DNA of 64,000 nt from Eledone cirrhosa (taxonomy: Eukaryota), in NCBI GenBank assembly GCA_964016885.1, contig OZ024742.1, positions 321,656,001 to 321,720,000 on the forward strand, in the 5' to 3' direction. Position 1 is the stretch's first letter, and every line of letters starts with the position of its first letter. The notes beneath the pieces were generated by a model, which saw nothing but the letters and a program-made list of their open reading frames with translations, was not told the DNA's origin and did not search any database. Of the stretch, positions 5,468 through 62,371 are shown piece after piece. The translations under genes were made by a program, and so were the position numbers.

Positions 5468-6029
5468 ATGTATGTAATGTGTGTAATATATGATGTGTAG
5501 TTACGACGCTACTTTTGATGTGACCGCACATCTTCTATTCTGAGTGGCAGCCATGACAGATACGAGCATTCTCACTACAAACAAGAAAACCATCCCCACT
5601 GCCACCAGACGCCACCATCGCCGTCGTCATCACCATCAACATCAACATCGACATCGTTACTATATCACCTAAGCAATCACAATCGTCATCACGAACTACA
5701 GTACTGACCGCCATAAGTATCACCATGAACACCACAACCACCTCAAGCACCTAACACTGTTACTCACCACCACCACACACACACATCATCACCAAGACCA
5801 ATACCCTACCCCACCGTACCACACCCCACCCCACAATAGCTGCACAGTACCATAGCAATTACAAAGTCTCTAATACTGATAGAAAGTCGCCAACACAAAC
5901 GACCACCACCCTCATAGACAACACCGGGCCAAATACATCGTCACCACGAAAACAACGACGACGACGACCACCACCACCACCACCAACGCTAACACCATCA
6001 TCAGAAACACCACCAACCCCACCACCACC

Positions 6030-9000
6030 ACCATCAACACCACCACAAACGAACACTACCAGCAACCCCACCACCGCCACCATCAACACCACCACAAACG
6101 ACCACTACCAGCAACACCGCCACCGCCACCATCAACACCACCACAAACGACCACTACCACCAACCCCACCACCGCCACCATCAACACCACCACAAACGAC
6201 CACTACCACCAACCCCACCACCGCCACCATCATCACCACTACAAACGACCACTACCACCAACCCCACCACCGCCACCATCAACACCACCACAAACGACCA
6301 CTACCACCAACCCCGCCACCGCCACCATCAACACCACCACAAACGACCACTACCACCAAACCCACCACCGCCACCATCAACACCACCACAAACGACCACT
6401 ACCACCAACCCCGCCACCGCCACCATCAACACCACCACAAACGACAACTACCACCAACCCCACCACCGCCACCATCAACACCACCACAAACGACAACTAC
6501 CACCAACCCCACCACCGCCACCATCAACACCACCACAAACGACCACTACCAGCAACCCCGCCACCGCCACCATCAACACCACCACAAACGACCACTACCA
6601 CCAACCCCGCCACCGCCACCATCAACACCACCACAAACGACCACTACCACCAACCCCGCCACCGCCACCATCAACACCACCACAAACGACCACTACCACC
6701 AACCCCGCCACCGCCACCATCAACACCACCACAAACGACCACTACCAGCAACCCCGCCACCGCCACCATCAACACCACCACAAACGACCACTACCACCAA
6801 CCCCGCCACCGCCACCATCAACACCACCACAAACGACAACTACCACCAACCCCACCACCGCCACCATCAACACCACCACAAACGACAACTACCACCAACC
6901 CCACCACCGCCACCATCAACACCACCACAAACGACCACTACCAGCAACCCCGCCACCGCCACCATCAACACCACCACAAACGACCACTACCACCAACCCC
7001 ACCGCCACCATCAACACCACCACAAACGACCACTACCACCAACACCGCCACCGCCACCATCAACACCACCACAAACGACCACTACCACCAACACCGCCAC
7101 CGCCACCATCAACACCACCACAAACGACCACTACCAGCAACCCCGCCACCGCCACCATCAACACCACCACAAACGACCACTACCACCAACACCGCCACCG
7201 CCACCATCAACACCACCACAAACGACCACTACCACCAACCCCGCCACTGCCACCATCAACACCACCACAAACGACCACTACCACCAACACCGCCACCGCC
7301 ACCATCAACACCACCACAAACGACCACTACCACCAACACCGCCACCGCCACCATCAACACCACCACAAACGACCACTACCACCAACACCGCCACCGCCAC
7401 CATCAACACCACCACAAACGACCACTACCACCAACCCCGCCACCGCCACCAACAACACCACCACAAACGACCACTACCACCAACACCGCCACCGCCACCA
7501 TCAACACCACCACAAACGACCACTACCACCAACACCGCCACCGCCACCATCAACACCACCACAAACGACCACTACCACCAACACCGCCACCGCCACCATC
7601 AACACCACCACAAACGACCACTACCAACAACACCGCCACCGCCACCATCAACACCACCACAAACGACCACTACCACCAACCCCACCGCCACCATCAACAC
7701 CACCACAAACGACCACTACCAACAACACCGCCACCGCCACCATCAACACCACCACAAACGACCACTACCACCAACACCGCCACCGCCACCATCAACACCA
7801 CCACCAACATCACCACCACCAACACCGCCACCGCCACCATCAACACCACCACAAACGACCACTACCACCAACACCGCCACCGCCACCATCAACACCACCA
7901 CCAACATCACCACCACCAACACCGCCACCGCCACCATCAACACCACCACAAACGACCACTACCACCAACACCGCCACCGCCACCATCAACACCACCACAA
8001 ACGACCACTACCACCAACCCCACCACCGCCACCATCAACACCACCACAAACGACCACTACCACCAACCCCACCACCGCCACCATCAACACCACCACAAAC
8101 GACCACTACCACCAACCCCACCACCGCCACCATCAACACCACCACAAACGACCACTACCACCAACCCCACCACCGCCACCATCAACACCACCACAAACGA
8201 CCACTACCAGCAACCCCGCCACCGCCACCATCAACACCACCACAAACGACCACTACCAGCAACCCCGCCACCGCCACCATCAACACCACCACAAACGACC
8301 ACTACCACCAACCCCGCCGCCACCATCAACACCACCACAAACGACCACTACCACCAACCCCGCCACCGCCACCATCAACACCACCACAAACGACCACTAC
8401 CACCAACACCGCCACCGCCACCATCAACACCACCACAAACGACCACTACCACCAACCCCGCCGCCACCATCAACACCACCACAAACGACCACTACCAGCA
8501 ACCCCACCACCGCCACCATCAACACCACCACAAACGACCACTACCACCAACCCCGCCACCGCCACCATCAACACCACCACAAACGACCACTACCACCAAC
8601 ACCGCCACCGCCACCATCAACACCACCACAAACGACCACTACCACCAACCCCGCCACCGCCACCATCAACACCACCACAAACGACCACTACCATCAACAC
8701 CACCACAAACGACCACTACCACCAACCCCAACACCGCCACCATCAACACCACCACAAACGACCACTACCACCAACCCCGCCACCGCCACCATCAACACCA
8801 CCACAAACGACCACTACCACCAACCCCGCCACCGCCACCATCAACACCACCACAAACGACCACTACCAGCAACCCCGCCACCGCCACCATCAACACCACC
8901 ACAAACGACCACTACCACCAACCCCAACACCGCCACCATCAACACCACCACAAACGACCACTACCAGCAACCCCGCCACCGCCACCATCAACACCACCAC

Positions 9001-9095
9001 AAACGACCACTACCACCAACGCCGCCACCGCCACCATCAACACCACCACAAACGACCACTACCACCAACCCCAACTCCGCCACCGCCACCACCAA
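6030..9095. repeat. 49-bp C/A-rich minisatellite, ~60 copies
   Basis: Unit ACACCACCACAAACGACCACTACCACCAACCCCGCCACCGCCACCATCA; AAACG recurs at 6096 and 6145. Confidence 0.95.
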
Positions 9096-15720: not shown

Positions 15721-15960
15721 TACCCCAAGAAGATAATAAATCAGTTACTGACAAAGAAAGCATATCTGGTTGAAGAGATTTTGAATGACTGTCATCAGTT
15801 GAAGAAGTCAACAGGAAGTCAACACGAATTCAACAGGAACAACAAGCATAAAGGACTAAAATCTTTCGAATAAATTGTCATAATTGTTAGTTTAAAGAGC
15901 TAGGAGAAAAAGCATTACTGTTATTATCTATCTATGTATGTCTGTCTATCTGTCTATCTG

Positions 15961-16980
<1,020 letters not shown>

Positions 16981-17010
16981 CTATCTATTTATCTATCTAT
17001 CTATCTACTA

Positions 17011-17460
17011 ACCTGGCCTGGCAGTGCTACCGAGGAGCTCTACCCGCTCGAGACAAGCTATACAGACACGGGCACCCGAGCAGGGATCCCTCGAAAAAGA
17101 TCTGTCCGAGATGCGTTCGGGACGAGGAAACCCTCGCGCACGCATTCGTACACTGCCCAAGCGTTACCGACCTGTGGAGCTATGCAGAAGGACTACTGTC
17201 ACGGGTGGGACAAATCCGGTTGACCACCGAGTCCATTATTGCGATCAAACCGCCACCTTCCTTCAAAAACGAAGGAGAGGCGGTTTTCCTCTGTGTAATG
17301 GCTATGGTGAAAGAGGCTATATGGTAGACGAGACTGAAAGGGCTGAGGTCAGACACCTTTCTCTCCGGCGAACAACTGGTTCGCTTCTTCAAATGTGGCA
17401 AGGATGGACCGAGTGGTTGGGCCTTGTCTCTATATAAACTTGTGGCAAATAAAGAAATAT
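17011..17460 (+). mobile_element. Second truncated, internally deleted L1/Tx1-like copy
   Basis: LAWQCYRGALPARDKL...CPRC; ends CTTGTGGCAAATAAAGAAAT then TATC. Confidence 0.85.
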
Positions 17461-17938: not shown

Positions 17939-18175
17939 GTTTATATAGGAGAAAATTATTGTAACTGATTTAAATGTTTGTAAAATGAAATACTGTGAAA
18001 GCTGGAATGACAAAATGAAACTCTAGGTTTCAATCACCTTTTCATAGAATGTTGTAATCAGAAAAATTATTAAGTTCAATATTTTGCTATAAACCACATA
18101 CTTTTTGACATGTTCTATACTAGTGTACATATGTATGTGTGTGTACGAAACTTTCTCTTTATACAGATATATATG

Positions 18176-18344: not shown

Positions 18345-19260
18345 ATGAATAAAGTTAGTCCTTCATCAGTGATCTTCCAACCATCATTGGTATTTCATCG
18401 CTTTAAAGACCATATACGTCCGGTTGGTGCGAGCAACGGCTAAAAAAAGTCGTTGGGACACGTAAATAAAGGGGACACGAGTGTAAACAAACAAAGATGG
18501 TGAAGCAACGAAAAGTGAGGAAGAAGGAGTCAAGTCCCAAATTTCTATGAATTTAAATTCGGTGAAATCGTGAACGAGAGAGAATAAAGACCATCAAACC
18601 TGGTTGGAATGTGAGCAAGGAAGGAATTCCGTACAGGTCTAACGGGAGGAAGAAGGGATCTAGTCTGTGATATTTACACATATTTTTTTCCCCGCTGTGA
18701 CACGTCTATTTCGTTCTTACTGCTTCCTCTTTCTCTGTATCTTTACCCTCTCTAGCAGTCACTCTCTCTGTTAGTCTCTTCCTCACCCTTCACTCACTCA
18801 TTCTCTGTTACTACCTCTCCTCCTCCTCCTTCTTCCCGTTTGACCTGTGCGTAATTCTTTTCTTTCGCACCCTTGGTCTGGCAGGTCGCTTTTTTTCTCT
18901 CTCTCGTCTACGATTTCACAGAACTTACGTTCACCGAATTCACAGACTAGATCCCTTCTTCCTCCCGTTAGACCTGTACGGAATTCCTTCCCTGCTCACA
19001 TTCCAACCAGGTTTGATGGTCTTTATTCTCTCTCGTTCACGATTTCACCGAATTTAAATTCATAGAAATTTGGGACTTGACTCCTTCTTCCTCACTTTTC
19101 GTTGCTTCACCATCTTTGTTTGTTTACACTCGTGTCCCCTTTATTTACGTGTCCCAACGACTTTTTTTAGCCGTTGCTCGCACCAACCAGAGGTATATGG
19201 TCTTTAAAGCGATGAAATACCAATGATGGTTGGAAGATCACTGATGAAGGAGTAACTTTA

Positions 19261-19266
<6 letters not shown>
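18345..19266. repeat. Long inverted repeat (~325-bp arms, ~270-bp spacer) between (TA)n tracts
   Basis: 18345-18670 is the near-perfect reverse complement of 18940-19266. Confidence 0.9.
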
Positions 19267-19301
<35 letters not shown>

Positions 19302-19484
19302 CTCCTTACGTAGAGAACAAAACGTTGAATAATGCCGCTAATTTTAGTGGCAATTCGACATGTTTATAATATCCAGCTTTTATCAGCGACCTGATTTGCG
19401 TGTGTGTCACTTTAACGGCTTGACCGCATGCGTTGGGCAGGGAGCATAATATTTACTTGCTATACCTTATAGCGTGGAAATAGG

Positions 19485-19565
19485 GCTGTCTGAAGATTCA
19501 TTTCTTTCCATTGGAAATTCGTTGGATTTCCAATCTTTCGGAATGATGAAACCGTCGGTAACAGC
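19485..19565 (+). ncRNA. Type I hammerhead ribozyme, copy 1
   Basis: Stem I GCUGU/ACAGC; core CUGAAGA; stem II UCAUUUC/GGAAUGA with inner UUGGAAAUU/GAUUUCCAA; GAAACCG-U-CGGUA. Predicted cut after 19560. Confidence 0.85.
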
Positions 19566-19941
19566 ATCTGAACAGGTGATTATTTAATCATTTTTTAATT
19601 TATTTAGAAAATTGTTTAATAACCGTTTGTTTCGCTACTTTTATATTGTTCTGGTATCTCGAATTAGTGCCATTGAACCACATGTATTATAAACAACTTG
19701 AATATTTCTACAAGTACATTGTACCTGTTGAGGTATCCATCCACTTCTATAATTTATTCTCCTTACGTAGAGAACAAAACGTTGAATAATGCCGCTAATT
19801 TTAGTGGCAATTCGACATGTTTATAATATCCAGCTTTTATCAGCGACCTGATTTGCGTGTGTGTCACTTTAACGGCTTGACCGCATGCGTTGGGCAGGGA
19901 GCATAATATTTACTTGCTATACCTTATAGCGTGGAAATAGG

Positions 19942-20022
19942 GCTGTCTGAAGATTCATTTCTTTCCATTGGAAATTCGTTGGATTTCCAATCTTTCGGAA
20001 TGATGAAACCGTCGGTAACAGC
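19942..20022 (+). ncRNA. Type I hammerhead ribozyme, copy 2
   Basis: Same sequence as copy 1; predicted cut after 20017. Confidence 0.85.
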
Positions 20023-20398
20023 ATCTGAACAGGTGATTATTTAATCATTTTTTAATTTATTTAGAAAATTGTTTAATAACCGTTTGTTTCGCTACTTTTA
20101 TATTGTTCTGGTATCTCGAATTAGTGCCATTGAACCACATGTATTATAAACAACTTGAATATTTCTACAAGTACATTGTACCTGTTGAGGTATCCATCCA
20201 CTTCTATAATTTATTCTCCTTACGTAGAGAACAAAACGTTGAATAATGCCGCTAATTTTAGTGGCAATTCGACATGTTTATAATATCCAGCTTTTATCAG
20301 CGACCTGATTTGCGTGTGTGTCACTTTAACGGCTTGACCGCATGCGTTGGGCAGGGAGCATAATATTTACTTGCTATACCTTATAGCGTGGAAATAGG

Positions 20399-20479
20399 GC
20401 TGTCTGAAGATTCATTTCTTTCCATTGGAAATTCGTTGGATTTCCAATCTTTCGGAATGATGAAACCGTCGGTAACAGC
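20399..20479 (+). ncRNA. Type I hammerhead ribozyme, copy 3
   Basis: Same sequence as copy 1; predicted cut after 20474. Confidence 0.85.
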
Positions 20480-20551
20480 ATCTGAACAGGTGATTATTTA
20501 ATCATTTTTTAATTTATTTAGAAAATTGTTTAATAACCGTTTGTTTCGCTA

Positions 20552-20590
<39 letters not shown>

Positions 20591-20594
<4 letters not shown>

Positions 20595-21280
20595 AAGAAT
20601 TCATATCTAGTAACATATATATACATACAAATGCATATCGATGCTAGCAAATATATAGGTTTTGTCTTAATAACATTGTGGTTCAATGCATGGGGTTGTA
20701 GAACAATAATATAAGAGACGTAAAATAAGAAAATTATAAAATTAACTTACTTACTAAAATATCACTTCCAACTAATTAGTTTCTGGAATGGAGTAGATAC
20801 ATCTTCCGAAGAAGGTGTAGAGAAACATCCCCTCATCAGGAAAGTCAATTCTCATATAAGTTTCCAGGCAAAGCGAGGACACTGGAAGCTTATTAAAAAA
20901 TAAATCAGTGAATAGGAAATAGCAAAGCGTGGACTTAATTACTAGCCATTGAGAAAATCACTGCCTCTGTGTCCGTGGCAAATTCAAAAAGAATCGAACA
21001 CGTGACATCGAGGTCAATCGGTGGAAAGTGGGTTGTTAATAAGACAGCGGCCAGCCTACTACTGTAACAGCAGTCATGGCCAGTATTGCTCGACAAAAGA
21101 TTTGGAGATAATAATAAAGAATTTATATCTAGTAACATATATATACATACAGATGCATATCAATGCTAGCAAATATATAGGTTTTGTCTTAATAACATTG
21201 TGGTTCAATGCATGGGGTTGCAGAACAATAATATAAGAGACGTAAAATAAGAAAATTATAAAATTAACTTACTTACTAAA
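20591..21280 (-). mobile_element. Second retrozyme/pLTR-like element: 522-bp unit x ~1.3
   Basis: ~167-bp direct repeats at 20591-20758 and 21113-21280 with an HHR between them; flanked by (TA)n. Confidence 0.7.
20764..20845 (-). ncRNA. Type I hammerhead ribozyme with cUUCGg-capped stem II
   Basis: Minus strand: ACUUUC-CUGAUGA-GGGGAUG...CUUC-UUCG-GAAG...CAUUCCA-GAAAC-UAAUUA-GUU-GGAAGU. Confidence 0.75.
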
Positions 21281-22644: not shown

Positions 22645-25600
22645 GTAGTTTGGTGTGGTGTGGTGTGGTTGTGTGGTGTGGTGTGGTTGTGTGGTGTAGT
22701 GTGGTGTGGTGTGGTTGTGTAGTGTAGTGTGGTGTGGTTGTGTGGTGTAGTGTGGTGTGGTTGTGTGGTGTGGTGTGGTGTGGTGTGGTTGTGTGGTGTG
22801 GTGTGGTGTGGTGTGGTGTGGTTGTGTGGTGTAGTGTGGTGTGGTTGTGTGGTGTAGTGTGGTGTGGTTGTGTGGTGTGGTGTGGTGTGGTGTGGTTGTG
22901 TGGTGTAGTGTGGTGTGGTTGTGTGGTGTAGTGTGGTGTGGTTGTGTGGTGTAGTGTGGTGTGGTTGTGTGGTGTAGTGTGGTGTGGTGTGGTGTGGTTG
23001 TGTGGTGTAGTGTGGTGTGGTTGTGTGGTGTAGTGTGGTGTGGTGTGGTGTGGTTGTGTGGTGTAGTGTGGTGTGGTTGTGTGGTGTAGTGTGGTGTGGT
23101 GTGGTGTGGTTGTGTGGTGTGGTGTGGTGTGGTTATGTGGTGTAGTGTGGTGTGGTTGTGTGGTGTAGTGTGGTGTGGTTGTGTGGTGTGGTGTGGTGTG
23201 GTGTGGTGTGGTGTGGTTGTGTGGTGTAGTGTGGTGTGGTTGTGTGGTGTAGTGTGGTGTGGTGTGGTGTGGTTGTGTGGTGTAGTGTGGTGTGGTTGTG
23301 TGGTGTAGTGTGGTGTGGTGTGGTGTGGTTGTGTGGTGTAGTGTGGTGTGGTTGTGTGGTGTAGTGTGGTGTGGTGTGGTTGTGTGGTGTAGTGTGGTGT
23401 GGTTGTGTGGTGTAGTGTGGTGTGGTGTGGTGTGGTTGTGTGGTGTAGTGTGGTGTGGTTGTGTGGTGTGGTGTGGTGTGGTGTGGTTGTGTGGTGTGGT
23501 GTGGTGTGGTGTGGTTGTGTGGTGTAGTGTGGTGTGGTGTGGTTGTGTGGTGTAGTGTGGTGTGGTTGTGTGGTGTAGTGTGGTGTGGTGTGGTGTGGTG
23601 TGGTGTGGTATAGTGTGGTGTGGTTGTGTGGTGTAGTGTGGTGTGGTGTGGTGTGGTGTGGTTGTGTGGTGTAGTGTGGTGTAGTTTGGTGTGGTGTGGT
23701 GTGGTGTGGTTGTGTGGTGTGGTGTGGTGTGGTTGTGTGGTGTAGTGTGGTGTGGTGTGGTGTGGTGTGGTGTGGTGTGGTGTGGTGTGGTGTGGTTGTG
23801 TGGTGTAGTGTGGTGTGGTGTGGTGTGGTGTGGTGTGGTGTGGTGTGGTGTAGTGTGGTGTGGTTGTGTGGTGTAGTGTGGTGTGGTTGTGTGGTGTAGT
23901 GTGGTGTGGTGTGGTGTGGTTGTGTGGTGTAGTGTGGTGTGGTTGTGTGGTGTGGTGTGGTGTGGTGTGGTTGTGTGGTGTGGTGTGGTGTGGTGTGGTT
24001 GTGTGGTGTAGTGTGGTGTGGTTGTGTGGTGTAGTGTGGTGTGGTGTGGTGTGGTTGTGTGGTGTAGTGTGGTGTGGTTGTGTGGTGTAGTGTGGTGTGG
24101 TGTGGTGTGGTTGTGTGGTGTAGTGTGGTGTGGTTGTGTGGTGTAGTGTGGTGTGGTGTGGTTGTGTGGTGTAGTGTGGTGTGGTTGTGTGGTGTAGTGT
24201 GGTGTGGTGTGGTGTGGTGTGGTGTGGTATAGTGTGGTGTGGTTGTGTGGTGTAGTGTGGTGTGGTGTGGTGTGGTGTGGTTGTGTGGTGTAGTGTGGTG
24301 TAGTTTGGTGTGGTGTGGTGTGGTTGTGTGGTGTGGTGTGGTGTGGTTGTGTGGTGTAGTGTGGTGTGGTTGTGTGGTGTGGTGTGGTGTGGTGTGGTTG
24401 TGTGGTGTAGTGTGGTGTGGTTGTGTGGTGTAGTGTGGTGTGGTTGTGTGGTGTAGTGTGGTGTGGTTGTGTGGTGTAGTGTGGTGTGGTGTGGTGTGGT
24501 TGTGTGGTGTAGTGTGGTGTGGTTGTGTGGTGTAGTGTGGTGTGGTGTGGTGTGGTTGTGTGGTGTAGTGTGGTGTGGTTGTGTGGTGTAGTGTGGTGTG
24601 GTGTGGTGTGGTTGTGTGGTGTGGTGTGGTGTGGTTGTGTGGTGTAGTGTGGTGTGGTTGTGTGGTGTAGTGTGGTGTGGTTGTGTGGTGTGGTGTGGTG
24701 TGGTGTGGTGTGGTGTGGTTGTGTGGTGTAGTGTGGTGTGGTTGTGTGGTGTAGTGTGGTGTGGTGTGGTGTGGTTGTGTGGTGTAGTGTGGTGTGGTTG
24801 TGTGGTGTAGTGTGGTGTGGTGTGGTGTGGTTGTGTGGTGTAGTGTGGTGTGGTTGTGTGGTGTAGTGTGGTGTGGTGTGGTTGTGTGGTGTAGTGTGGT
24901 GTGGTTGTGTGGTGTAGTGTGGTGTGGTGTGGTGTGGTGTGGTGTGGTATAGTGTGGTGTGGTTGTGTGGTGTAGTGTGGTGTGGTTGTGTGGTGTAGTG
25001 TGGTGTGGTTGTGTGGTGTAGTGTGGTGTGGTTGTGTGGTGTAGTGTGGTGTGGTGTGGTGTGGTTGTGTGGTGTAGTGTGGTGTGGTTGTGTGGTGTAG
25101 TGTGGTGTGGTGTGGTGTGGTTGTGTGGTGTAGTGTGGTGTGGTTGTGTGGTGTAGTGTGGTGTGGTGTGGTGTGGTTGTGTGGTGTGGTGTGGTGTGGT
25201 TGTGTGGTGTAGTGTGGTGTGGTTGTGTGGTGTAGTGTGGTGTGGTTGTGTGGTGTGGTGTGGTGTGGTGTGGTGTGGTGTGGTTGTGTGGTGTAGTGTG
25301 GTGTGGTTGTGTGGTGTAGTGTGGTGTGGTGTGGTGTGGTTGTGTGGTGTAGTGTGGTGTGGTTGTGTGGTGTAGTGTGGTGTGGTGTGGTGTGGTTGTG
25401 TGTGGTGTAGTGTGGTGTGGTTGTGTGGTGTAGTGTGGTGTGGTGTGGTTGTGTGGTGTAGTGTGGTGTGGTTGTGTGGTGTAGTGTGGTGTGGTGTGGT
25501 GTGGTGTGGTGTGGTATAGTGTGGTGTGGTTGTGTGGTGTAGTGTGGTGTGGTGTGGTGTGGTGTGGTTGTGTGGTGTAGTGTGGTGTAGTTTGGTGTGG

Positions 25601-28498
25601 TGTGGTGTGGTGTGGTTGTGTGGTGTGGTGTGGTGTGGTTGTGTGGTGTAGTGTGGTGTGGTGTGGTGTGGTGTGGTGTGGTGTGGTGTGGTGTGGTGTG
25701 GTTGTGTGGTGTAGTGTGGTGTGGTGTGGTGTGGTGTGGTGTGGTGTGGTGTGGTGTAGTGTGGTGTGGTTGTGGTGGTGTGGTGTGGTGTGGGTGGTGT
25801 GTGTGGTGTGGTGTGGTGTGGTGTGGTTGTGTGGGGTGTGTGGGTGTGGTGTGGTGTGGTGTAGTGTGGTGTGGTTGTGTGGTGTAGTGTGGTTGTGGTT
25901 GTGTAGTGTAGTGTGGTGTGGGTTGTGTGGTGTGGTGTGGTATGGTTGTGTGGTGTAGTGTGGTGTGGTTGTGTGGTGTGTGTGGTGTGGTTGTGGTGTG
26001 GTTGTGTGGTGTTGTGTGGTGTGGTTGTGTGGTGTGGTGTGGTGTGGTGTGGTTGTGTGGTGTGGTGTGGTGTGGTTGTGTGGTGTGGTGTGGTTGTGTG
26101 GTGTAGTGTGGTGTGGGTTGTGTGGTGTGTGTGGTGTGGTTGTGTGGTGTGTGTGGTGTGGGGTGGTGTGGGTGTAGGTGTGGTGGTGGTTGTGTGGTGT
26201 GGTGTGGTGTGGTGTGGTGTGGTTGTGTGGTGTAGTGTGGTGTGGTTGTGTGGTGTAGTGTGGTGTGGTGTGGTGTGGGTTGTGTGGTGTAGTGTGGTGT
26301 GGTTGTGTGGTTGTGTGGTGTGGTTGGTGGTGTAGTGTGGTGTGGTGTGGTGTGGTGTGGTGTGGGGTGTGGGTAGTGTGGTGTGGTTGTGTGGTGTAGT
26401 GTGGTGTGGTGTGTGGTGTGGGTGTGGTGTGGTTGTGTGGTGTAGGGTTGGTGTGGGTGGTGTGGTGTGGTGTGGTGTGGTGTGGTTGTGTGGTGTAGTG
26501 TGGTGTGGTTGTGTGGTGTGGTGTGGTGTGGTTGTGTGGTGTAGTGTGGTGTGGTTGTGTGGTGTGGTGTGGTGTGGTGTGGTGTGGTTGTGTGGTGTGG
26601 TGTGGTGTGGTTGTGTGGTGTAGTGTGGTGTGGTTGTGTGGTGTAGTGTGGTGTGGTGTGGTGTGGTGTGGTTGTGTGGTGTAGTGTGGTGTGGTTGTGT
26701 GGTGTGGTGTGGTGTGGTTGTGTGGTGTAGTGTGGTGTGGTTGTGTGGTGTGGTGTGGTGTGGTGTGGTGTGGTTGTGTGGTGTGGTGTGGTGTGGTTGT
26801 GTGGTGTAGTGTGGTGTGGTTGTGTGGTGTAGTGTGGTGTGGTTGTGTGGTGTGGTGTGGTTGTGTGGTGTAGTGTGGTGTGGTTGTGTGGTGTGGTGTG
26901 GTGTGGTGTGGTGTGGTTGTGTGGTGTGGTGTGGTGTGGTTGTGTGGTGTAGTGTGGTGTGGTTGTGTGGTGTGGTGTGGTGTGGTGTGGTGTGGTTGTG
27001 TGGTGTAGTGTGGTGTGGTTGTGTGGTGTGGTGTGGTGTGGTTGTGTGGTGTAGTGTGGTGTGGTTGTGTGGTGTGGTGTGGTGTGGTGTGGTGTGGTTG
27101 TGTGGTGTGGTGTGGTGTGGTTGTGTGGTGTAGTGTGGTGTGGTTGTGTGGTGTGGTGTGGTGTGGTTGTGTGGTGTGGTGTGGTGTGGTGTGGTGTGGT
27201 GTGGTTGTGTGGTGTAGTGTGGTGTGGTTGTGTGGTGTGGTGTGGTGTGGTTGTGTGGTGTAGTGTGGTGTGGTTGTGTGGTGTAGTGTGGTGTGGTTGT
27301 GTGGTGTAGTGTGGTGTGGTTGTGTGGTGTGGTGTGGTGTGGTGTGGTTGTGTGGTGTAGTATGGTGTGGTTGTGTGGTGTGGTGTGGTGTGGTTGTGTG
27401 GTGTAGTGTGGTGTGGTTGTGTGGTGTAGTGTGGTGTGGTTGTGTGGTGTAGTGTGGTGTGGTTGTGTGGTGTGGTGTGGTGTGGTGTAGTGTGGTTGTG
27501 TGGTGTAGTGTGGTGTGGTTGTGTGGTGTAGTGTGGTGCGGTTGTGTTGTGTGGTGTGGTGTGGTGCGGTTGTGTGGTGTGGTGTGGTGCGGTTGTGTGG
27601 TGTGGTGTGGTGTGGTTGTGTGGTGTAGTGTGGTGTGGTTGTGTGGTGTAGTGTGGTGTGGTTGTGTGGTGTAGTGTGGTGCGGTTGTGTTGTGTGGTGT
27701 GGTGTGGTGCGGTTGTGTGGTGTGGTGTGGTGCGGTTGTGTGGTGTGGTGTGGTGTGGTTGTGTGGTGTGGTGCGGTGTGGTTGTGTGGTGTAGTGTGGT
27801 GCGGTTGTGTTGTGTGGTGTGGTGTGGTGCGGTTGTGTGGTGTGGTGTGGTGCGGTTGTGTGGTGTGGTGTGGTGTGGTTGTGTGGTGTGGTGCGGTTGT
27901 GTAGTGTGGTGCGGTTGTGTGGTGTAGTGTGGTGCGGTTGTGTTGTGTGGTGTGGTGCGGTTGTGTGGTGTGGTGTGGTGCGGTTGTGTGGTGTGGTGTG
28001 GTGCGGTGGTGTAGTGTGGTGCGGTTGTGTGGTGTGGTGTGGTGTGGTGTGGTGCGGTTGTGTGGTGTGGTGCGGTTGTGTGGTGTGGTGTGGTGCGGTT
28101 GTGTGGTGTGGTGTGGTGCGGTTGTGTGGTGTGGTGTGGTGCGATTGTGTGGTGTGGTGTGGTGCGGTTGTGTGGTGTGGTGTGGTGTGGTTGTGTGGTG
28201 TGGTGCGGTTGTGTAGTGTGGTGCGGTTGTGTGGTGTAGTGTGGTGCGGTTGTGTTGTGTGGTGTGGTGCGGTTGTGTGGTGTGGTGTGGTGCGGTTGTG
28301 TGGTGTGGTGTGGTGCGGTGGTGTAGTGTGGTGCGGTTGTGTGGTGTGGTGTGGTGTGGTGTGGTGCGGTTGTGTGGTGTGGTGCGGTTGTGTGGTGTGG
28401 TGTGGTGCGGTTGTGTGGTGTGGTGTGGTGCGGTTGTGTGGTGTGGTGTGGTGCGATTGTGTGGTGTGGTGTGGTGCGGTTGTGTGGTGTGGTGTGGT
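22645..28498. repeat. (GTGTG)n-derived satellite with 18/23-bp higher-order units
   Basis: GTGTG pentamers interspersed with GTT, GTA and GCG variants; explains the 1793-aa HTTP ORF. Confidence 0.95.
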
Positions 28499-33717: not shown

Positions 33718-36700
33718 TCAAGTTGCTCTTGAGTGCTACTGGTAACATGTAACCCAGTACAACCTGTCTCATGGTCGGGTCTTCGCCGACTAAACCGGCA
33801 ACCCCACCAAGCTTGCTTGGTGGGGAGGGTGATATTTTGACACCCTGCTGGATGAAATACAAGACCCGGCAAAGGGCGGAGGAACTCAGCATAGTCAACG
33901 GCCTTCTAAATAGTACTTTTTTTCTTTTCTTACCTGGGAGTGAAGGGACCCCAGTTGTTGTCACAACACCTTTCTAGGAGAGGGAAACTCCGAAAAAAAA
34001 CCTGCGGATTCGGAAGCATCCGATGATGTTGACCAGTTCTCTTTTTCGGGTAGTGTTTTCTATGCTCAGAGAGTGGGATTGGTCGAGTGCAAGGCCTTTC
34101 CCCACTTAAAAAACCTTCAAAGCACAGGCATCACTTGTTCAGGATCTGTTACAGGTTCGTGTGGCTGGCCGTAGCCTAAAATTGCACCAAACTCTATGAT
34201 GACAGATGATAATCTTGAAGTCAATGGCAGTAAGGGCTCTGTAACTTATTGTGAAGGGTCTGGCTCGCAGGTGTCGCATGGCACCGCAGCGTGAGCCCGG
34301 TCGTCATCCTACAACTGCAAAGAGGTTCAAACCTCTGAATATTGGATGCTGCAATGTAAGAACTTTACTTGATTCTCAGTCCAGTGAAACTCGCCCTGAA
34401 AGAAGATCTGCTTTGGTGTCGAGGGAACTCAATTGCTATAGCATGGATATCGTTGCTCTTTTAGAAATGAGATTGGCAGGTGAGGGTCAATTCACAGAAC
34501 AGAAGGGAGGATATACCTTCTATTGGAGTGGTGGAGCAGTGGGTTGTAGGAGAGAGGCAGGGGTCGCATTTGCTGTCAGGAATGGAATCGTCTCAAAGCT
34601 GTAAAATCTTCCTTGTGGATTCAATGATCGGATAATGTGCATGAGAGTCCCTCTGATTCAAAACAGCTTTGTGACTCTGGTCAGTGTGTACTACGCTCCT
34701 ACTATGTGTGGCCAGTGATGATGAAAAACTAAGTTTCTACATGTCTTTGAGAGACGTCATCCATGGTATACCTTATGCAGACAAGATTTCATCCTTGGTG
34801 ATTTTAATGCACGTGTTGGTAATGACTGGGAAGCTTGGAGTGTGATGGGCAAGCATGGAGTAGGTAAGTGCAATAACAATGGCCTACTTCTGTTGCAGAT
34901 GTGCACTGAGATGGATCTTGTTGTTGGGAACACGCTCTTTCAGCAGAAAGACAAATATAAGACAACTTGGATGCATCCAGGTTCTAAGAAGTAGCACCTT
35001 ATTGACTTTGTTTTAACGAGGAAACGTGATATCAGGGATATTACATTGGTTCGTGTATTGCGAGGCGCGGAATGTTGGTCTGGTGCGCGCCAAATTTCAA
35101 TTTGTTGTGAAGCCCAAAGTAAGGGGGAAGAAGGTTGCACTTCCAAAACTACTAAACGTGGCTCGTCTGAAAACAGAGAAGGTCAGAGCTGAGCTGTCGA
35201 AGTCCCTTGAGTTCATGGAATGTGAAAACACGTGGGAATCATTGAAGAAAACCGTCTATGATGTTAGTGCTGGAGTTTTGGGCCATACCAATAGAAAGCA
35301 TAAAGACTGGTTCGATGAAAATGATACAGTGATCCAGACCTTGCTTGAAGAGAAACAAAAAGTGCTGACATCATTGTTGTGTGAGACACGTTCTGCAACA
35401 TCGATTGAGAGCCATGCAGGATACCTGGTGGAGCCAAAAGTCTGATGAAATCCAGACGGCCTCAGATAGACATGATACAAAGCTCCTATGCAGTCTGCTC
35501 AGGGAGGTGTATGGTCCGACCGGGTCACAAATATCACCACTTCGCTCCAGGGACGGCAAGGAATTGCTCAGAGATCCGAAGGAAATCCTGATCAGGTGGC
35601 ATGACCAATTTGATGAGCTTCTCTACAGACCATCAGAAATTGATGATGAGTTCATCTGGTCGATTCCATCAAGACCTACAAAGCTGGCAATGGCTGATCC
35701 TCCTTCATTTGATGAGGTGGCGAAGGCCATTGTCAAATTAAACAGCGGCAAGTCATTTGGAATGGATGGACTGAGTACCGAGATTTTCAAGTGTGCTGGT
35801 GATAATTTCTTAAACCGACTCACTGATCTCTTTGTGAATGTTTGGAATGAAGAAGATGCGCCACAGGACTGGAAAGATGCATTGATGGTGGTACTTTACA
35901 AAGGAAAGGGAGCCAAAGATGACGGTGGCAACTACATGGGTATCTCGCTGCTATCTGTGGCTGGGAAGATCTTGTTCAGGATATTGTTGGACAGATTGAT
36001 ACAACACATTGCTGTTGAGGTACTTCCTGAGTCCCAATGTGGCTTTAGGAATGGCAGAGGCACTGTTGACATGATCTTCTCGGCCAAACAACTTCAAGAG
36101 AAATGCATTGAGCAGCGCATGGACTTATACCAAGTTTTTGTACGATCTGACATAAGCATTTAACACCGTTAATCGGAAGGCTTTGTGGGTTATTTTGGAG
36201 AGATTAGGCTGTCCTGAAAAGTTTGTGAACATTCTGAAACTCTTCCACGATGACATGCAGGCATGGGTGAATGTTGGAGGTAAACTGTCTGAACCAATCT
36301 CGGTTGAAAATGGTGTCAAGCAGGGTGATATACCTGCACCAACTTTGTTTGCGTTGTATTTCGCAATGGTGTTCTTCGTGATCTTCAGGGATTGTCAACA
36401 CAGTATCTATCTCAGATATCGCACTTCCGGCAAGCTGTTTAACCTTAGGCGTCTCACTGCCAACACTAAGTTAAAGAGTACCTTATGGATTCTTTTTCCA
36501 ATGCGTGCAGTGCTTTGGGACTGACAATCAGTCTGAAGAAGACTGTCGTCATGTACCAACCTGCTCCGGATAAAGTTTTCAATTAACCCTCCATACACGT
36601 ATACGGTCAAAAACTGAAGGCTGCTGACACATTTGTGTATTTGGAGAGTACTCTGAGTGTGGTCTGTTCTCTGGATGCAGAAGTTGGTCTACGTGTTAGT

Positions 36701-37567
36701 GAGGCAAGTGAGTCATTTGGAAGGCTCAACGACCGTCTTTGGTGCAGGCGAGGGATCACAATGAGGACCAAGGTGAGAGTGTATGCTGCATGTGTACTGT
36801 CAGCATTGCTGTATGCATGTGAGACATGCGTTGCCTACAAACGGCATATCCACAGAATGGAACGGTTTCACCAGCAGTGTCTCAGAATGATGCTCGCTAT
36901 CAAGTGGCAGATGCATGTGAGTGATGTTGAGGTCCTTGAGAGAAGTGAGTGTCGGAGCATTGAGAGTATCATCCACCAACAGCGTTTGCGATGGACCGGA
37001 CACCTCTGCAGAATGGAGGATGATCGAATCCCAAAACAACTCTTGTATGGCGAACTTTGTGAGCCAAGGCTTCGATTCAAGGATTGTGTAAAGGACTCAT
37101 TGAAAAAAAATGGCTTAATGATGGCTGACTGGGAGATAGAAACTCTTGAAAGAGAAACTTGGCGTGGAATGATGAATGATGGGGTCCATAATTTTGAGGA
37201 CAGACGCATAGAGCACGAGAAGATCAAAAGGGATGTGCGTAAGCAATGCCCTGGTGTATCTCTCGAAACGATCGGTGTCTCCATTGAATTGAAGTGCCCT
37301 GAGTGTGGAAAAATTTGCTTGAGCAAATCTGGTCTCAGGAGCCACAGTCACAGCCAGGTTCAAAGAGAACCAGTGAACTACGATCTCCACGGTGTTGTGA
37401 GGGTTCACGGGCAACCTGATGCGGGACCTCAAGCCAGGGAGATCCATAGTTGTCGTCAGTGTGTGAAGGAGTGCAAGTCTCTAGCAGGCTTGAAAAGCCA
37501 TATCCGAGCGTCCCACATCTGAATCTGACAAGCAATTGCAATACTCTTGGCAGAGTTTGCAGCCATC
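33718..37567 (+). mobile_element. Near full-length decayed RTE (BovB-like) LINE: 5' UTR, APE endonuclease, RT, two C2H2-like fingers
   Basis: NIGCCNVRTL..RPERRSALV (EN); LPESQCGFRNGRGTVDMIF and VKQGDIPAPTLF (RT); CPECGK...HSHS and CRQC...HIRASH. Broken by stops and frameshifts. Confidence 0.92.
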
Positions 37568-40916: not shown

Positions 40917-41825
40917 TTTTCTTTATTAACCACAAGGGTTTACATAAAGTAGACATTAAGGACAGTACAGGACAATACAGGACGGTACAAATGGGCATTT
41001 CTGCGTGTAAAAAAAACAGAGGATGAAATAAAATAACAAAGAAAAATTCCCCAATAGGGGGGAGACTTCCGAGGGACATTTGTGGAGAAAGCCCAGTAAA
41101 AAGCCACAATGACCCTGACCACCAAGGCAAGTGCCCTCTCCCAGTTTTCCACCTTTAATTTACAGATATATACTCAGAGTAGGCCCATTCACTCGGGCCA
41201 TTCTTGCTTCTCTCACCCATCTTTCAACAAAATGCTGGGAAGAGAGCACTTCCCTCTCTGCCCTGATTTTCCTTTTCAGATGAAATTTGAAAAAGTCAAT
41301 CAGAACATCACCGAAGAGGTAAGTGCTCGTCTTCAGCCCTTTCAAGCGTGTCCACCATACTATCTCTTTCGCCATGGTCACTATACAGATAAAAACTGCC
41401 TGCCCTTCCCGGCTAAAGGAGGAGGGCGGGGCAATCCTCACGATGGACTCAGATGATAGCTGGATCCGTCCTACACGTGACAGCAGGTGTTCGACATAAA
41501 CCCACAAGTCAGCAATGCTCGGACACTGGACGAGTGCGTGCAGGACGGTTTCGTCGCCCTGTGCGCATCTCGGACATGCCCGGCTGACGGCACCTCCATG
41601 CCTGTAAAGTTTATCCCGAACTGGCAAAGCACCCCAGTAGCACTGCCAGGCCAGGGATTTCTGGAAGTTGTCCATAGGCCCCGGCCCGAAAGTCCTTCCG
41701 AAGAGATTGGCTAGTTGATTTTCGTCGACGCCTAGAGTTTCTCCAAGTACGTCGTCGCTCTTCCCCTCCACTAATCCCCTATAGAACGCCAAGGTGGAGT
41801 TTCCACCGATCACATTGCCCGATTG
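40917..41825 (-). mobile_element. 5'-truncated L1/Tx1-like copy, nearly identical to the 58656-59583 segment
   Basis: ORF 41160-41813 matches the last 217 aa of ORF2; same 3' UTR; degenerate (ATT)n tail. Confidence 0.93.
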
Positions 41826-41990
41826 ATTTCTTTATTGGCCACAAGGGCTGACATCGAGAAAAACATTACAGACGACACAGTACGGTACAGGACGGTACGA
41901 TGTGGGTTTTGTGCGTGTAAAGATTTTTATTATTTATATAAGAAACGAAAAAGAAAAAAGACACAGAAACATATATTTAATAATAGTAAA
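41826..41990 (-). mobile_element. 3' UTR fragment of a related LINE subfamily
   Basis: Minus strand ends CCCTTGTGGCCAATAAAGAAATC and shares GTACCGTCCTGTA with the main 3' UTR. Confidence 0.65.
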
Positions 41991-58916: not shown

Positions 58917-61900
58917 TTACAGATATATACTCAGAGTAGGCCCATTCACTCGGGCCATTCTTGCTTCTCTCACCCATCTTTCAACAAAATGCTGGGAAGA
59001 GAGCACTTCCCTCTCTACTCTGATTTTCCTTTTCAAATGAAATTTGAAAAAGTCAATCAGAGCATCACCGAAGAGGTAAGTGCTCGTCTTCAGCCCTTTC
59101 AAACGTGTCCACCATACTATCTCTTTCACCATGGCCACCAGGCAGATAAAAACTGCCTGCCCTTCCCGGCTAAAGGAGGAGGGCGGGGCAATCCTCACGA
59201 TGGACTCAGATGATAGCCGGATCCGTCCTAAACGCGACAGCAGGTGTTCGACATAAACCCACAAGTCAGCAATTTTCGGACACTGGACGAGTGCGTGCAG
59301 GACGGTTTCGTCGCCCTGCGCGCATCTCGGACATGCCCGGCTGACGGCACCTCCATGCCTGTAGAGTTTATCCCGAACTGGCAAGGCTCCTCGGTAGCAC
59401 TGCCAGGCCAGAGATTTCTGGAAGTTGTCCATAGGCCCTGGCCCGAAAGTTCTTCCGAAGAGATTGGCTAGTTGATTTTCGTCGACGCCTAGAGTTTCCC
59501 CAAGTACGTCGTCGCTCTTCCCCTCCACTAATCCTCTATAGAACGCCGAGGTGGAGTTTCCACCGATCACATTGCCCGATTGGTCGAGGGCTGTGAGCGC
59601 CTGAAGACATTCCAGTCTCCAGGCGCTCCCTCTCGGTCTTCGCTTGACCCAGGACTGCAGCTCCGTCAAGGAAACGAGCTGGGGAAAAACGCGTCTAGCA
59701 AACGGCGACCACACCTGATCACCGTCGAGGAAGAGGTGGAGATGTCGTAGCCTGAGCGCGTGCCTGCGCATCATCAGCCACGGCATGCCCAGCCCTCCAC
59801 GTAGCGGGTGTTGACAACAGATGGACCGCCTGACCATCGGAGCACGTCCCTTCCACAAAAAGCGAAAGAGCAAACGCTCCAGCGCAGTCAGGCGAGGCTT
59901 AGGACAAGGTACGACGGTTAGGCGGTAGCAGATGACAGACGCGATGTACGCGTTAGCCACCTCCGCTCGACCTTTCAGGGATAGCTTCCTCTCCGCCCAT
60001 TTCTGGGTGAGAGAAGCCACCCTGCTCGTCACCTCGTCCCAGTTTTTGTCCGTCTGGAGGTCCGGACCGAACCAGACCCCTAGCAATTTAACCGGTCCGT
60101 CCGTCCAGCGCCCGACGACGCTGTTGGACGGCATGGACCTGCCTCTCCAGGTGCCGAGCTGCAGGCCCACTGACTTTTCCTGGTTGATCATTGCTCCTGT
60201 CACCGCTTCGTATTCTCTTAGTGTAGTGCCGATCGCCTCGATGTGTTTGGCGTTCGACACCACTACGGTGACATCGTCCGCATATGCTGACACGGATCTT
60301 CCGCATCCTAGTTCGCGCGGGACTCCCCTCAACGTCTCCAGTTTGTGCAGTAATGGCTCGAGCGTCAATACGTACAAGAGGGACGAGAGGGGACATCCTT
60401 GGCGGACCGAGCGCATGATGTTGAACGGTTCCGACAGGTGACCGTTCACTCTCACCACAGAGCAGATGTCGCTGTGCATGGCAGCGATCCAGCCTCTGAA
60501 GACGGGCCCAAAGCCAGCCGCCCTCAGGACTGCCGCTAGGTAACGATGGTCGACCCTATCGAAAGCTTTCGACTGATCTAAATTGATCAAGGACCCACCC
60601 GTGCCAGGTTCCCTAGCTACCCTCTCTACGATGTATCGCATGAGGTGGAGGTTGTCGTGGATGGATCTGTCGGGAATGGCGCATGTCTGCGCCTCTCCCA
60701 CCAGACCACCAACGACAAGCGCCAACCTCTTTGCTAGCACCTTGGCCAAAATCTTAAACTCTGTGTTTAGCAGAGTTATGGGCCGGAAATTGTCTATGTT
60801 ATCCCCCTTGTTCGGATCCTTTCTCAGCAGTGCCACCGCTCCTCGGCTCACAGAACTGGGAATTCTCCCGTTCTGTTGCCAGTTGCAGTAGACGTCCGCC
60901 AAGAGGCCTCCGAACAAGTCTGGCATCTGTACGTAAAGTTCATAGGGCAGACCATCCAAACCAGGCGATTTACCCCTTGTGCAGCCAGTCATTGCCTCCC
61001 TTACTTCAGCGGCTGTTATCGGCTTTTCGCAACACTTCGCCTCAGTGGCCGAGAGCTGCGGCAGTCCGTCGAGGTAGACACTAAAGTCCATCCCTCTACC
61101 CGGCCCCCCGCTGCCCCCGAACAGCTGAGCGAAGTGTCGCTGAAAAGCTTCACACATTTGCCCGGGATCGAGTAGCATGCGCCCGTCGTGGTCCACCAAA
61201 GACCGGATCGTGGCTTTGTTGCCACGACGCGCCTCCGCCACTCGGGCCCATTGAACGGCTTTCGTCCCCTCGTGTCTGAGAGCACGCACCCTAGCTCTGA
61301 CAACGCAGCCTTCGTGCTTTGCATTGAAGAATTGGTCAAGGGCCAATTTCGCCGCAAGCACGTCGGTCGCAATGCCTTTGCTAAGCGCCTCGTCTAATTT
61401 TCTAACTAGTTCTCCCTCTGCTCTATTTTTCTCTATTGCTAAAGCCTTACTAAACCTAATCGATTCTATTCTAATCGCTCTTTTCAGAGCAAACCACCAC
61501 TTGTTGTTGACGATGGCCCCCGTCAACGCCCGCTTAACTAGTTCGCTAATCCGGTCTCTGTAGGCCTTGCGCGCTGGTAAGGACGCGTTTAGCTTCCAGT
61601 AGCCGGGTCCTCGTCTATGAAGCCTATCTAGGTCAAGCACACAGATCACGAATTTGTGGTCCGTGTAGCTGACTATCTTGAATTGTGGACAGCCTATGCT
61701 AGACCTATCTATTTCCCTACAAAATACTCTATCTAGATATGATCTGGATGACCCTATGCGGTTTGTCCAAGTCCACATTGGCACATTCGGGAAATCCAAT
61801 CGGTACCTGTCAGACAGTTCAAAACGCCTGAGCAGGTTGGTGAGGCTCTTGCACCCTCCACCCCTATCCGCTAATCCCACACAGTCCCAGCGTGCATCTA

Positions 61901-62336
61901 AGATCCCGTTCCAGTCGCCCACTAACACTAAAGAGCGGGACGTTCCAAGAAAGGTCTCCAGACGCCGGAAGAAATCAGGCCGCCCTGCTCCTGTCGGGGC
62001 ATAGACGGCCACTAGCCTGAAAGCTTGCCCGTCTCCGCTGGTCACGTCCAGCACCACCAGCTTACCCTCTGGGTCCAGGAAGATGGCCCGTATGGCGAGA
62101 TCCAAACCTCTCCGAAAAAGCACAGCAACTCCTCCACCCGATCCAGGACGGCTGGGAGATGCGTACACATCGTAGCCGCCGAAGATCGGTGCGAAGGCCC
62201 GTGCTTCGGAGATTCTGGTCTCGCTGATGGCCACTACATCTATGTTTAGTGACCTGAGGTCGTTGAGCAGGTGACCCTGCTTCCATGACGACCCCAAGCC
62301 ACGCGCATTTATGCTGCCTATTCTGAGTGAGGTCAT
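58917..62336 (-). CDS. LINE ORF2: APE endonuclease, reverse transcriptase, C-terminal Cys/His finger (1139 aa)
   Basis: SINARGL, AISET, GDWN, SYLDRV, TDH (EN); KSPGLDG, FRPITLLN, LDQSKAFDRV, RQGCPLS, YADD (RT); CPRC...H...C. Confidence 0.95.
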   Translation of the reverse strand: MTSLRIGSINARGLGSSWKQGHLLNDLRSLNIDVVAISETRISEARAFAPIFGGYDVYASPSRPGSGGGVAVLFRRGLDLAIRAIFLDPEGKLVVLDVTSGDGQAFRLVAVYAPTGAGRPDFFRRLETFLGTSRSLVLVGDWNGILDARWDCVGLADRGGGCKSLTNLLRRFELSDRYRLDFPNVPMWTWTNRIGSSRSYLDRVFCREIDRSSIGCPQFKIVSYTDHKFVICVLDLDRLHRRGPGYWKLNASLPARKAYRDRISELVKRALTGAIVNNKWWFALKRAIRIESIRFSKALAIEKNRAEGELVRKLDEALSKGIATDVLAAKLALDQFFNAKHEGCVVRARVRALRHEGTKAVQWARVAEARRGNKATIRSLVDHDGRMLLDPGQMCEAFQRHFAQLFGGSGGPGRGMDFSVYLDGLPQLSATEAKCCEKPITAAEVREAMTGCTRGKSPGLDGLPYELYVQMPDLFGGLLADVYCNWQQNGRIPSSVSRGAVALLRKDPNKGDNIDNFRPITLLNTEFKILAKVLAKRLALVVGGLVGEAQTCAIPDRSIHDNLHLMRYIVERVAREPGTGGSLINLDQSKAFDRVDHRYLAAVLRAAGFGPVFRGWIAAMHSDICSVVRVNGHLSEPFNIMRSVRQGCPLSSLLYVLTLEPLLHKLETLRGVPRELGCGRSVSAYADDVTVVVSNAKHIEAIGTTLREYEAVTGAMINQEKSVGLQLGTWRGRSMPSNSVVGRWTDGPVKLLGVWFGPDLQTDKNWDEVTSRVASLTQKWAERKLSLKGRAEVANAYIASVICYRLTVVPCPKPRLTALERLLFRFLWKGRAPMVRRSICCQHPLRGGLGMPWLMMRRHALRLRHLHLFLDGDQVWSPFARRVFPQLVSLTELQSWVKRRPRGSAWRLECLQALTALDQSGNVIGGNSTSAFYRGLVEGKSDDVLGETLGVDENQLANLFGRTFGPGPMDNFQKSLAWQCYRGALPVRDKLYRHGGAVSRACPRCAQGDETVLHALVQCPKIADLWVYVEHLLSRLGRIRLSSESIVRIAPPSSFSREGQAVFICLVAMVKEIVWWTRLKGLKTSTYLFGDALIDFFKFHLKRKIRVEREVLSSQHFVERWVREARMARVNGPTLSIYL

Positions 62337-62371
62337 GTTTAAAATAGAGTGGAAAAGATGGGAAAGACCAC

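Follow-up and report, generated by a model that had tools for sequence, protein, structure and literature searches.

How a short sequence without coding capacity comes to stand in identical head-to-tail copies inside a microsatellite is the question raised by positions 19291-20560 of the window (the 64,000-nt stretch of Eledone cirrhosa DNA analyzed here). Repeat analysis of the window placed an array of 2.8 copies with a period of 457 bp and exact bounds at these positions. In a self-comparison offset by one period, 813 of 813 bases were identical, and the match could not be extended beyond the array. The longest listed stop-to-stop frame in the array was 69 codons; the 457-nt unit has G or C at 162 of its 457 bases (GC of <50%), no protein coding and no LTR organization, and insertions of it end in (TA)n. 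Tracts of (TA)n at 19264-19294 and 20556-20591 each overlap the array by TATA. The first-pass annotation of this DNA, which had described ~2.8 identical 457-bp units without an open reading frame (ORF), flanked by (TA)n with a TATA overlap at both junctions, was accurate on all these points, and the cuts it had predicted (after 19560, 20017 and 20474) are correct by motif register. The parts of the array are as follows, with unit positions counted from the predicted cut:

19264..19294, no strand: left (TA)n tract, whose final TATA is shared with unit site B and serves as the 5' junction
19291..20560, + strand: one-armed insertion of the putative retrozyme, made up of unit positions 188-457, 1-457, 1-457 and 1-86
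19485..19565, + strand: type I hammerhead motif 1, predicted cut after 19560 (sequence, motif scans and local stem I pairing)
19561..20017, + strand: cut-to-cut monomer 1, 457 nt, predicted circle
19748..19753, + strand: site B, unit 188-193, the family's second fixed 3' end; other copies at 19291 (the 5' junction here) and 20205
19942..20022, + strand: type I hammerhead motif 2, predicted cut after 20017 (motif scan)
20018..20474, + strand: cut-to-cut monomer 2, 457 nt, identical to monomer 1
20399..20479, + strand: type I hammerhead motif 3, predicted cut after 20474 (motif scan)
20556..20560, + strand: site A, unit 82-86, UAUAU after a U-rich run, the fixed 3' end used here; internal copies at 19642 and 20099
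20556..20591, no strand: right (TA)n tract, overlapping site A, the putative priming end

Several other repeats lie around the array. On its left, 19017-19263 (+) is part of a repeat of very high copy number, which carries a CUGAUGA motif and terminates in (TA)n; a similar copy ends near 18593, a related end lies near 18023-18070, and paralogues have short and long end types, again resembling Penelope-like elements (PLEs). On its right, a second hammerhead-like motif with a long stem II (~20770-20845, -) belongs to a high-copy repeat whose end is at the right (TA)n; several hammerhead-bearing elements seem to have accumulated at this TA tract. Farther away, an uninterrupted 1195-codon frame at 58920-62504 (-) resembles an endonuclease-RT ORF2 and is presumably Tx1-like; it has an upstream ORF at 62748-63791 (-) and fragments at 15891-17327 and 41163-41831. 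Broken RT-bearing LINE fragments at 34245-37519 (+) are ones we take to be RTE-like, and a 49-bp minisatellite (~63 copies) and a 5.8-kb (TGGTG)n-type array occupy 6009-9084 and 22651-28498. A scan of the window for bacterial promoters and terminators, a model not relevant to this host, returned nothing.

The motif GCUGU-CUGAAGA-stem II-GAAA-CCGUCGG-UA-ACAGC occurs three times in the array (cores at 19490, 19947 and 20404). With CUGANGA, GAAA, UH and helices I to III present, it has the elements of a type I hammerhead, with a U10.1.U11.1 mismatch at the base of stem II. The full type I hammerhead previously annotated in each unit stands as to the three motifs and their intact core; the U.U pair had been missed, and the single-U closure drawn for stem III is impossible. 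As a monomer, stem III would consist of A15.1-U16.1 plus 2 bp and a 3-nt loop (+0.4 kcal/mol), a marginal form compared with the calculated dimer duplex (-11.3 kcal/mol). Rfam, the check on hammerhead models suggested in that annotation, gave no hammerhead match for the motif even at E ≤ 10. The motif is thus non-canonical, both in its U.U at 10.1-11.1 and in lacking an Rfam match. U10.1-U11.1 and U3-A8 variants are known in natural hammerheads (Perreault et al. 2011, PMC3088659; Cervera & de la Pena 2014, PMC4209133), and an axolotl retrozyme with a U.U stem II base is reported to be weakly active as a monomer and to cleave more efficiently in dimeric form (PMC7229834). Predicted pairing of stem I depended on context: its probability was ~1 with 80-100 nt of upstream sequence, 0.06-0.48 with 130-300 nt and ~0.2 in the full closed circle, in which the active fold was predicted to cost ~6 kcal/mol. 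This off-state could protect a circle from re-cutting. The predicted fold of the whole monomer had z = -5.2 (0 of 100 shuffles folded as well), and 98% of cells were paired across eight unit variants in a consensus fold. Compensatory covariation among these variants fell short of significance: it was seen in 2 of 143 pairs, and 144 of 500 shuffles reached that level.

To establish the extent of the family, the 3.0-Gb genome was searched with a 21-nt core and with the unit. The core had 535 exact copies, and its reversed control had none; the unit search gave 1502 first-look candidates, of which 38 were scored and all 38 were arrays. Full units in these 38 arrays were 99-100% identical, except one at 95% with a 20-nt deletion; older subfamilies were 84-97% identical, and subfamilies overall spanned 84-100%. 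The unit was also present in sequencing runs of three studies, one possibly of the assembly's own sample. The 457-bp unit is a young, dispersed, non-coding mobile family and not an artefact or a chance motif, the latter because of the 535 core copies against none for the reversed control and the z score of the fold. This upholds the earlier inference of a dispersed retrozyme family: by its dispersal, tandem units and lack of coding, the family would be classed from its sequence as a non-LTR retrozyme.

Insertion structure was analyzed at 124 loci (38 from the unit search, 27 from the 100 core matches listed, 1 beside a PLE and 58 from end patterns), after two of 126 fetched loci (L230 and L236) were dropped for having no match of ≥40 nt. 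The first 66, chosen without regard to their ends, form an end-blind set. The end-selected set leans to A because only 12 loci were taken on a B-end match alone (from 111 B-end matches, 100 of them listed). In the end-blind set, 97 of 103 outer ends fell at site A or site B, which together make up ~6% of the unit length. All 44 one-armed arrays ended, in the hammerhead sense, at A (29 loci) or B (15 loci), with (TA)n or a TA-rich repeat directly after. The window array is one of these, with its 3' end at A and a 5' junction that uses the TATA of B. Its ends had been read as a free permutation lying ~86 and ~188 nt from the cut register; the offsets hold, and the permutation does not, since both are fixed sites of the family. 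Likewise, the permuted ends in (TA)n that a genome-wide search had been expected to find are ends at two UAUA sites, which lie 82 nt and 188 nt beyond the cut. Most ends sit in (TA)n, where a target-site duplication is unreadable. The 5' ends of one-armed arrays showed a mild cluster (8 of 44 at unit positions 186-207, P = 0.001, for an interval picked post hoc).

The remaining 80 of the 124 loci were two-armed, with the arms head to head, a feature that the first-pass annotation had missed. In the 73 two-armed loci with both ends typed, 72 paired A with B, one was A/A and none was B/B; the other seven had an end elsewhere or at a contig edge. The same rule held in the end-blind two-armed loci (n = 32; 31 A/B, 1 A/A, 0 B/B; P = 1.5 × 10−8). 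Inner junctions, as placed by BLAST boundaries, were spread over the whole unit, with an overlap of 1-5 nt in 43 of 71 and a blunt join in 14 of 71; arm lengths graded continuously, and inner ends varied. Of the six UAUA tetramers, only A and B are predicted to be unpaired in the circle (P ≥ 0.84, against ≤ 0.23 for the rest), and both were still unpaired in the eight-sequence consensus fold.

This pattern resembles that of PLEs, whose insertions are reported to include a truncated copy in inverted orientation and to have a tail on just one side (Craig et al. 2021, PMC8557442; Arkhipova et al. 2013, PMC3846280). According to Frangieh et al. 2024 (PMC11167929), the anole PLE protein (PAc), a predicted dimer, extends both strands in vitro, and two internal RNA start sites define the tail. 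The genome yielded 10,597 GIY-YIG candidates. Among these, a Neptune-like RT plus GIY-YIG element (L099) is a young family, with 91 scored copies at 98-100% amino-acid identity and many 775-codon frames. The reverse strand of its 3' region carries a U3-A8 minimal hammerhead motif with an ACCGGU palindrome, identical in 60 of the occurrences counted in fetched loci. The element has two (TA)n ends (6949 and 3107 exact matches), 79 and ~145 nt past its own hammerhead motif, and in the first 47 Mb of contig C1 these paired as 26 A/B, 2 B/B and 0 A/A (n = 28). Its first end site lies 79 nt past the cut, compared with 82 nt for the retrozyme. CACUUUCUA precedes its second end site; the counterpart at retrozyme site B is CACUUCUA.

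Having no ORF, the unit lacks the RT plus GIY-YIG ORF of an autonomous PLE. Its two fixed 3' ends and inverted 5'-truncated arm are those of a PLE-mobilized element, in a genome with a young autonomous PLE of the same pattern, and mobilization of the family by PLE-type machinery is very probable. The earlier proposal of a PLE RT acting in trans is supported in this sense by the fixed ends, the A/B pairing (72 of 73) and the 26 of 28 in the Neptune-like element. No homology was found between the unit and the 3' region of that element (180 of 200 shuffles scored as well) or between the unit and 50 PLE loci of the families sampled, and an origin of the unit from a PLE pLTR was not found among them. 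At least two other hammerhead-bearing families use the same (TA)n target. Because homology is nil and other hammerhead families share the target, the Neptune-like family is only a candidate, and its choice as the specific partner enzyme is tentative, at rather less than an even chance.

Some further loci illustrate the company kept by these elements. A divergent copy of the unit 1.5 kb behind a PLE ORF (L100) was considered as PLE-derived and rejected, being a separate insertion in (TA)n. At L184:1285-1990, the unit is joined at a 4-nt microhomology just past the predicted cut of another hammerhead element, and the far end is an inverted arm of that other element; a template switch and an insertion with target deletion fit this join equally. 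Another tandem hammerhead repeat of ~511 nt with internal (TA)n lies at L109:8568 and 9079. Short palindromic elements at L105, L115 and L104 are built from two hammerhead-bearing ends in inverted orientation, one terminus long and the other short, and an unrelated hammerhead family at L309 and L311 (467-nt period in L309, no BLAST match to the unit) is also found in opposed orientation.

Array-private variants, which run through all units and both arms, bear on the form of the template. The best-surviving alternative to a circle assigns the insertions to the same PLE machinery and start sites copying an uncleaved, linear multimeric donor transcript, with the hammerhead weak or a passenger. 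Such a template predicts sharing only between units equidistant from the start in the two arms. In 25 two-armed arrays with 12,034 informative bases (arrays of <97.5% identity were excluded from variant counts, and L034, cut by a contig end, was left out of the matched-variant test), 19 variants were array-wide, none was position-matched only and 32 differed between arms. In a separate count, 24 variants occurred in both arms. If singletons are real mutations and not assembly errors, a linear template should have given ~16, 8 or ~4 position-matched variants for donors of equal, half or quarter age, and zero has P = 1 × 10−7, 3 × 10−4 or 0.018, respectively. The palindromic array L162/L163 (G000:C1:156425694-156438640; ~19 + 9 units) has two variants in every one of its 28 units and a T>G at unit position 194 in 6 of 28, in both arms and out of register, as a misread lesion on one template would give. 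Linear copying has support elsewhere: PAc did not need cleavage in vitro, where unprocessed RNA was the main substrate and the anole hammerhead, which needed the protein, was dispensable (PMC11167929); one of nine Xenopus retrozyme dimers cleaved in vitro and eight were inactive (Li et al., 10.64898/2026.07.22.740005); stem I is often predicted to be off; and a homogeneous donor also yields array-wide variants. Against it, new array-wide variants require a monomer bottleneck, none of the sharing is position-matched only, the T>G recurs out of register, and editing of a multimer would mark single units, yet the A>G excess described below is array-wide. A linear donor is therefore unlikely, and a single circular template is the likely one. 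The rolling copy of a circular monomer previously proposed for this locus is borne out to the extent that one monomer template appears to have been copied repeatedly. RNA-level replication would give a similar variant pattern.

One sequencing run (X2) yielded a 487-nt contig (457 + 30) of closed-loop shape, with two differences matching the L055 haplotype and no cover on flanking repeats; in runs X1 and X3 the flanking repeats were far deeper than the unit. This contig was rejected as evidence of a circle, as a tandem DNA array gives the same contig and missing cover proves nothing.

The variant spectrum differed by class. With polarity set by the majority allele, 13 of 26 distinct array-wide sites were A>G on the hammerhead strand, compared with 7 of 106 singletons (P = 1 × 10−6). 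The A>G:T>C ratio was 13:3 array-wide against 7:18 in singletons, and A>G:C>T was 13:5 against 7:14 (P = 0.025). The window array has one array-wide A>G, at unit position 172, in common with two others of the 38 arrays. Ten of the 13 A>G sites were paired, against 67% of all A; their 5' neighbors were A or U in 10 of 13, indistinguishable from background (80 of 127). Under editing and under selection for G.U-compatible changes alike, the asymmetry marks the hammerhead strand as that of the presumed RNA intermediate. The host encodes an ADAR2 orthologue (one exon is 94% identical to that of Octopus vulgaris); the same genome has at least 121 protocadherin N-terminal domains, mostly clustered. 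These two features mark the host as an octopod-like cephalopod; actin and the PLE protein did not resolve its lineage. The excess could partly represent selection for G.U-tolerant changes. Editing is favored because A>G exceeds C>T beyond mutation supply, and ADAR is a reasonably likely origin of the excess. If the excess does reflect editing, RNA edits in a cephalopod would here have a path into heritable DNA.

Later expansion of short PLE-type insertions as a DNA satellite, by unequal exchange or DNA rolling circles with gene conversion between arms, is very unlikely. Local amplification has been proposed by Li et al. (10.64898/2026.07.22.740005), and three variants shared by some units only, either adjacent or periodic (L041, L042 and L162), indicate some DNA-level duplication later than insertion. 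Satellite expansion fits poorly with private variants in both inverted arms of even short arrays, with the continuum of arm lengths and the overlapping or blunt inner junctions, and with a strand-asymmetric A>G excess, which is not what DNA-level processes leave behind. Viroid-like copying of the circle from RNA to RNA, ahead of reverse transcription, would supply both a bottleneck and A>G changes and would also yield array-wide private variants; it is highly improbable given that a motif scan found no minus-strand hammerhead within the array, that diversity in the young subfamily is very low and that A>G dominates the spectrum. An assembly artefact or chance motif, for which the 100% identity of the window units might speak, can be dismissed, as can the single-locus occurrence named earlier as grounds for doubt, given 124 loci with array-specific haplotypes and fixed ends and the presence of the unit in the runs of three studies.

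Taken together, these data make it likely that a PLE-like (Neptune-type) RT copies round a predicted circular 457-nt RNA into (TA)n. A tandem copy would be transcribed on the hammerhead strand, self-cleave (probably as a dimer) and be ligated into a 457-nt circle. The PLE enzyme would cut both strands of (TA)n, and, to judge from the ends, the TA ends would prime at the single-stranded UAUA sites A (82) and B (188). Where both strands are extended, one arm would start from A and the other from B and the arms would be joined head to head, the pattern seen in two-armed loci; extension of one strand, as in the window, would leave a one-armed array. Each arm would go round one and the same molecule for anything between part of a turn and 19 turns, and changes to it, including likely A-to-I edits, would for that reason appear in every unit. 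As TATA is self-complementary, the second target end could pair either with RNA at B, giving an inverted arm, or with cDNA, giving a direct junction. A more specific reading, to which we give even odds, has a dimeric Penelope-type enzyme with one subunit at each of sites A and B on one circle, and ADAR edits that enter the germline and drive the element's evolution. Were this so, each insertion would be a multi-pass read of one RNA molecule, and the two-site geometry would account for the tail and the inversion seen in PLEs at large.

The family shares with metazoan non-LTR retrozymes (PMC7229834; 10.64898/2026.07.22.740005) its non-coding tandem units with one type I hammerhead motif each, low GC, a structured monomer (predicted here) and the presence of PLEs in the same genome; axolotl HHR_Amex2 has the same U.U stem II base (PMC7229834). 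It differs in its 457-nt length with a 51-nt stem II region and in the lack of pLTR homology here, in contrast to Xenopus, where 24 of the 57 families had matches among known elements, chiefly PLEs. Neither of these two sources, in the parts consulted, describes retrozymes with two fixed 3' ends, A/B-paired inverted arms, targeting of (TA)n or variants shared at the level of the molecule. The rolling-circle model for retrozymes is a proposal in both (Cervera & de la Pena 2020, PMC7229834; Li, Clavereau & Pollet 2026, 10.64898/2026.07.22.740005). In the literature on cephalopod retrozymes and octopus hammerhead ribozymes we found no paper on such an element, which the supplements of PMC7229834 and the preprint might list.

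With EN+ PLEs of the Neptune/Nematis type (PMC8557442; PMC3846280; PMC11167929), the family has in common tandem copies with a 5'-truncated inverted arm, a tail confined to one end and insertion into microsatellites; to judge from its ends, it also shares two internal start sites and extension of both strands. It differs in having no ORF, a tail of ~105 nt against 30-40 and arms of up to 19 units, and its putative priming sites match the target by UAUA microhomology, in contrast to the non-homologous start site of PAc (PMC11167929). The short palindromic helix III, suited to dimers, is shared with PLE minimal hammerheads (PMC4209133; PMC3088659), from which the predicted hammerhead of this family differs in its much longer stem II. 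Arkhipova 2013 (PMC3846280) attributed PLE inversion to self-priming on an antisense template. Unlike such self-priming, our data point to two primings on one sense molecule. In L1 twin priming, two primers on one RNA give a head-to-head inversion. The present family would share the two primers on one RNA and shares the inverted head-to-head product; it differs in the fixed position of the second primer and in a first arm that runs past this position, as seen from inner ends spread over the whole unit.

That circular RNA is reverse-transcribed into tandem DNA was proposed in 2014 for PLEs and in 2020 for animal retrozymes; in the sources as consulted it is a model, and the complex tandem and inverted structure of PLEs is listed there as an open problem. 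The fixed-site, A/B-paired, single-template evidence does not appear in the PLE and retrozyme papers as consulted. The family offers precisely located start sites, strict pairing of one end of each kind, a statistical test that favors a circle over a linear template, and a candidate enzyme. It thereby makes a long-proposed copying step testable, with a 457-nt template and one protein as a small in vitro system.
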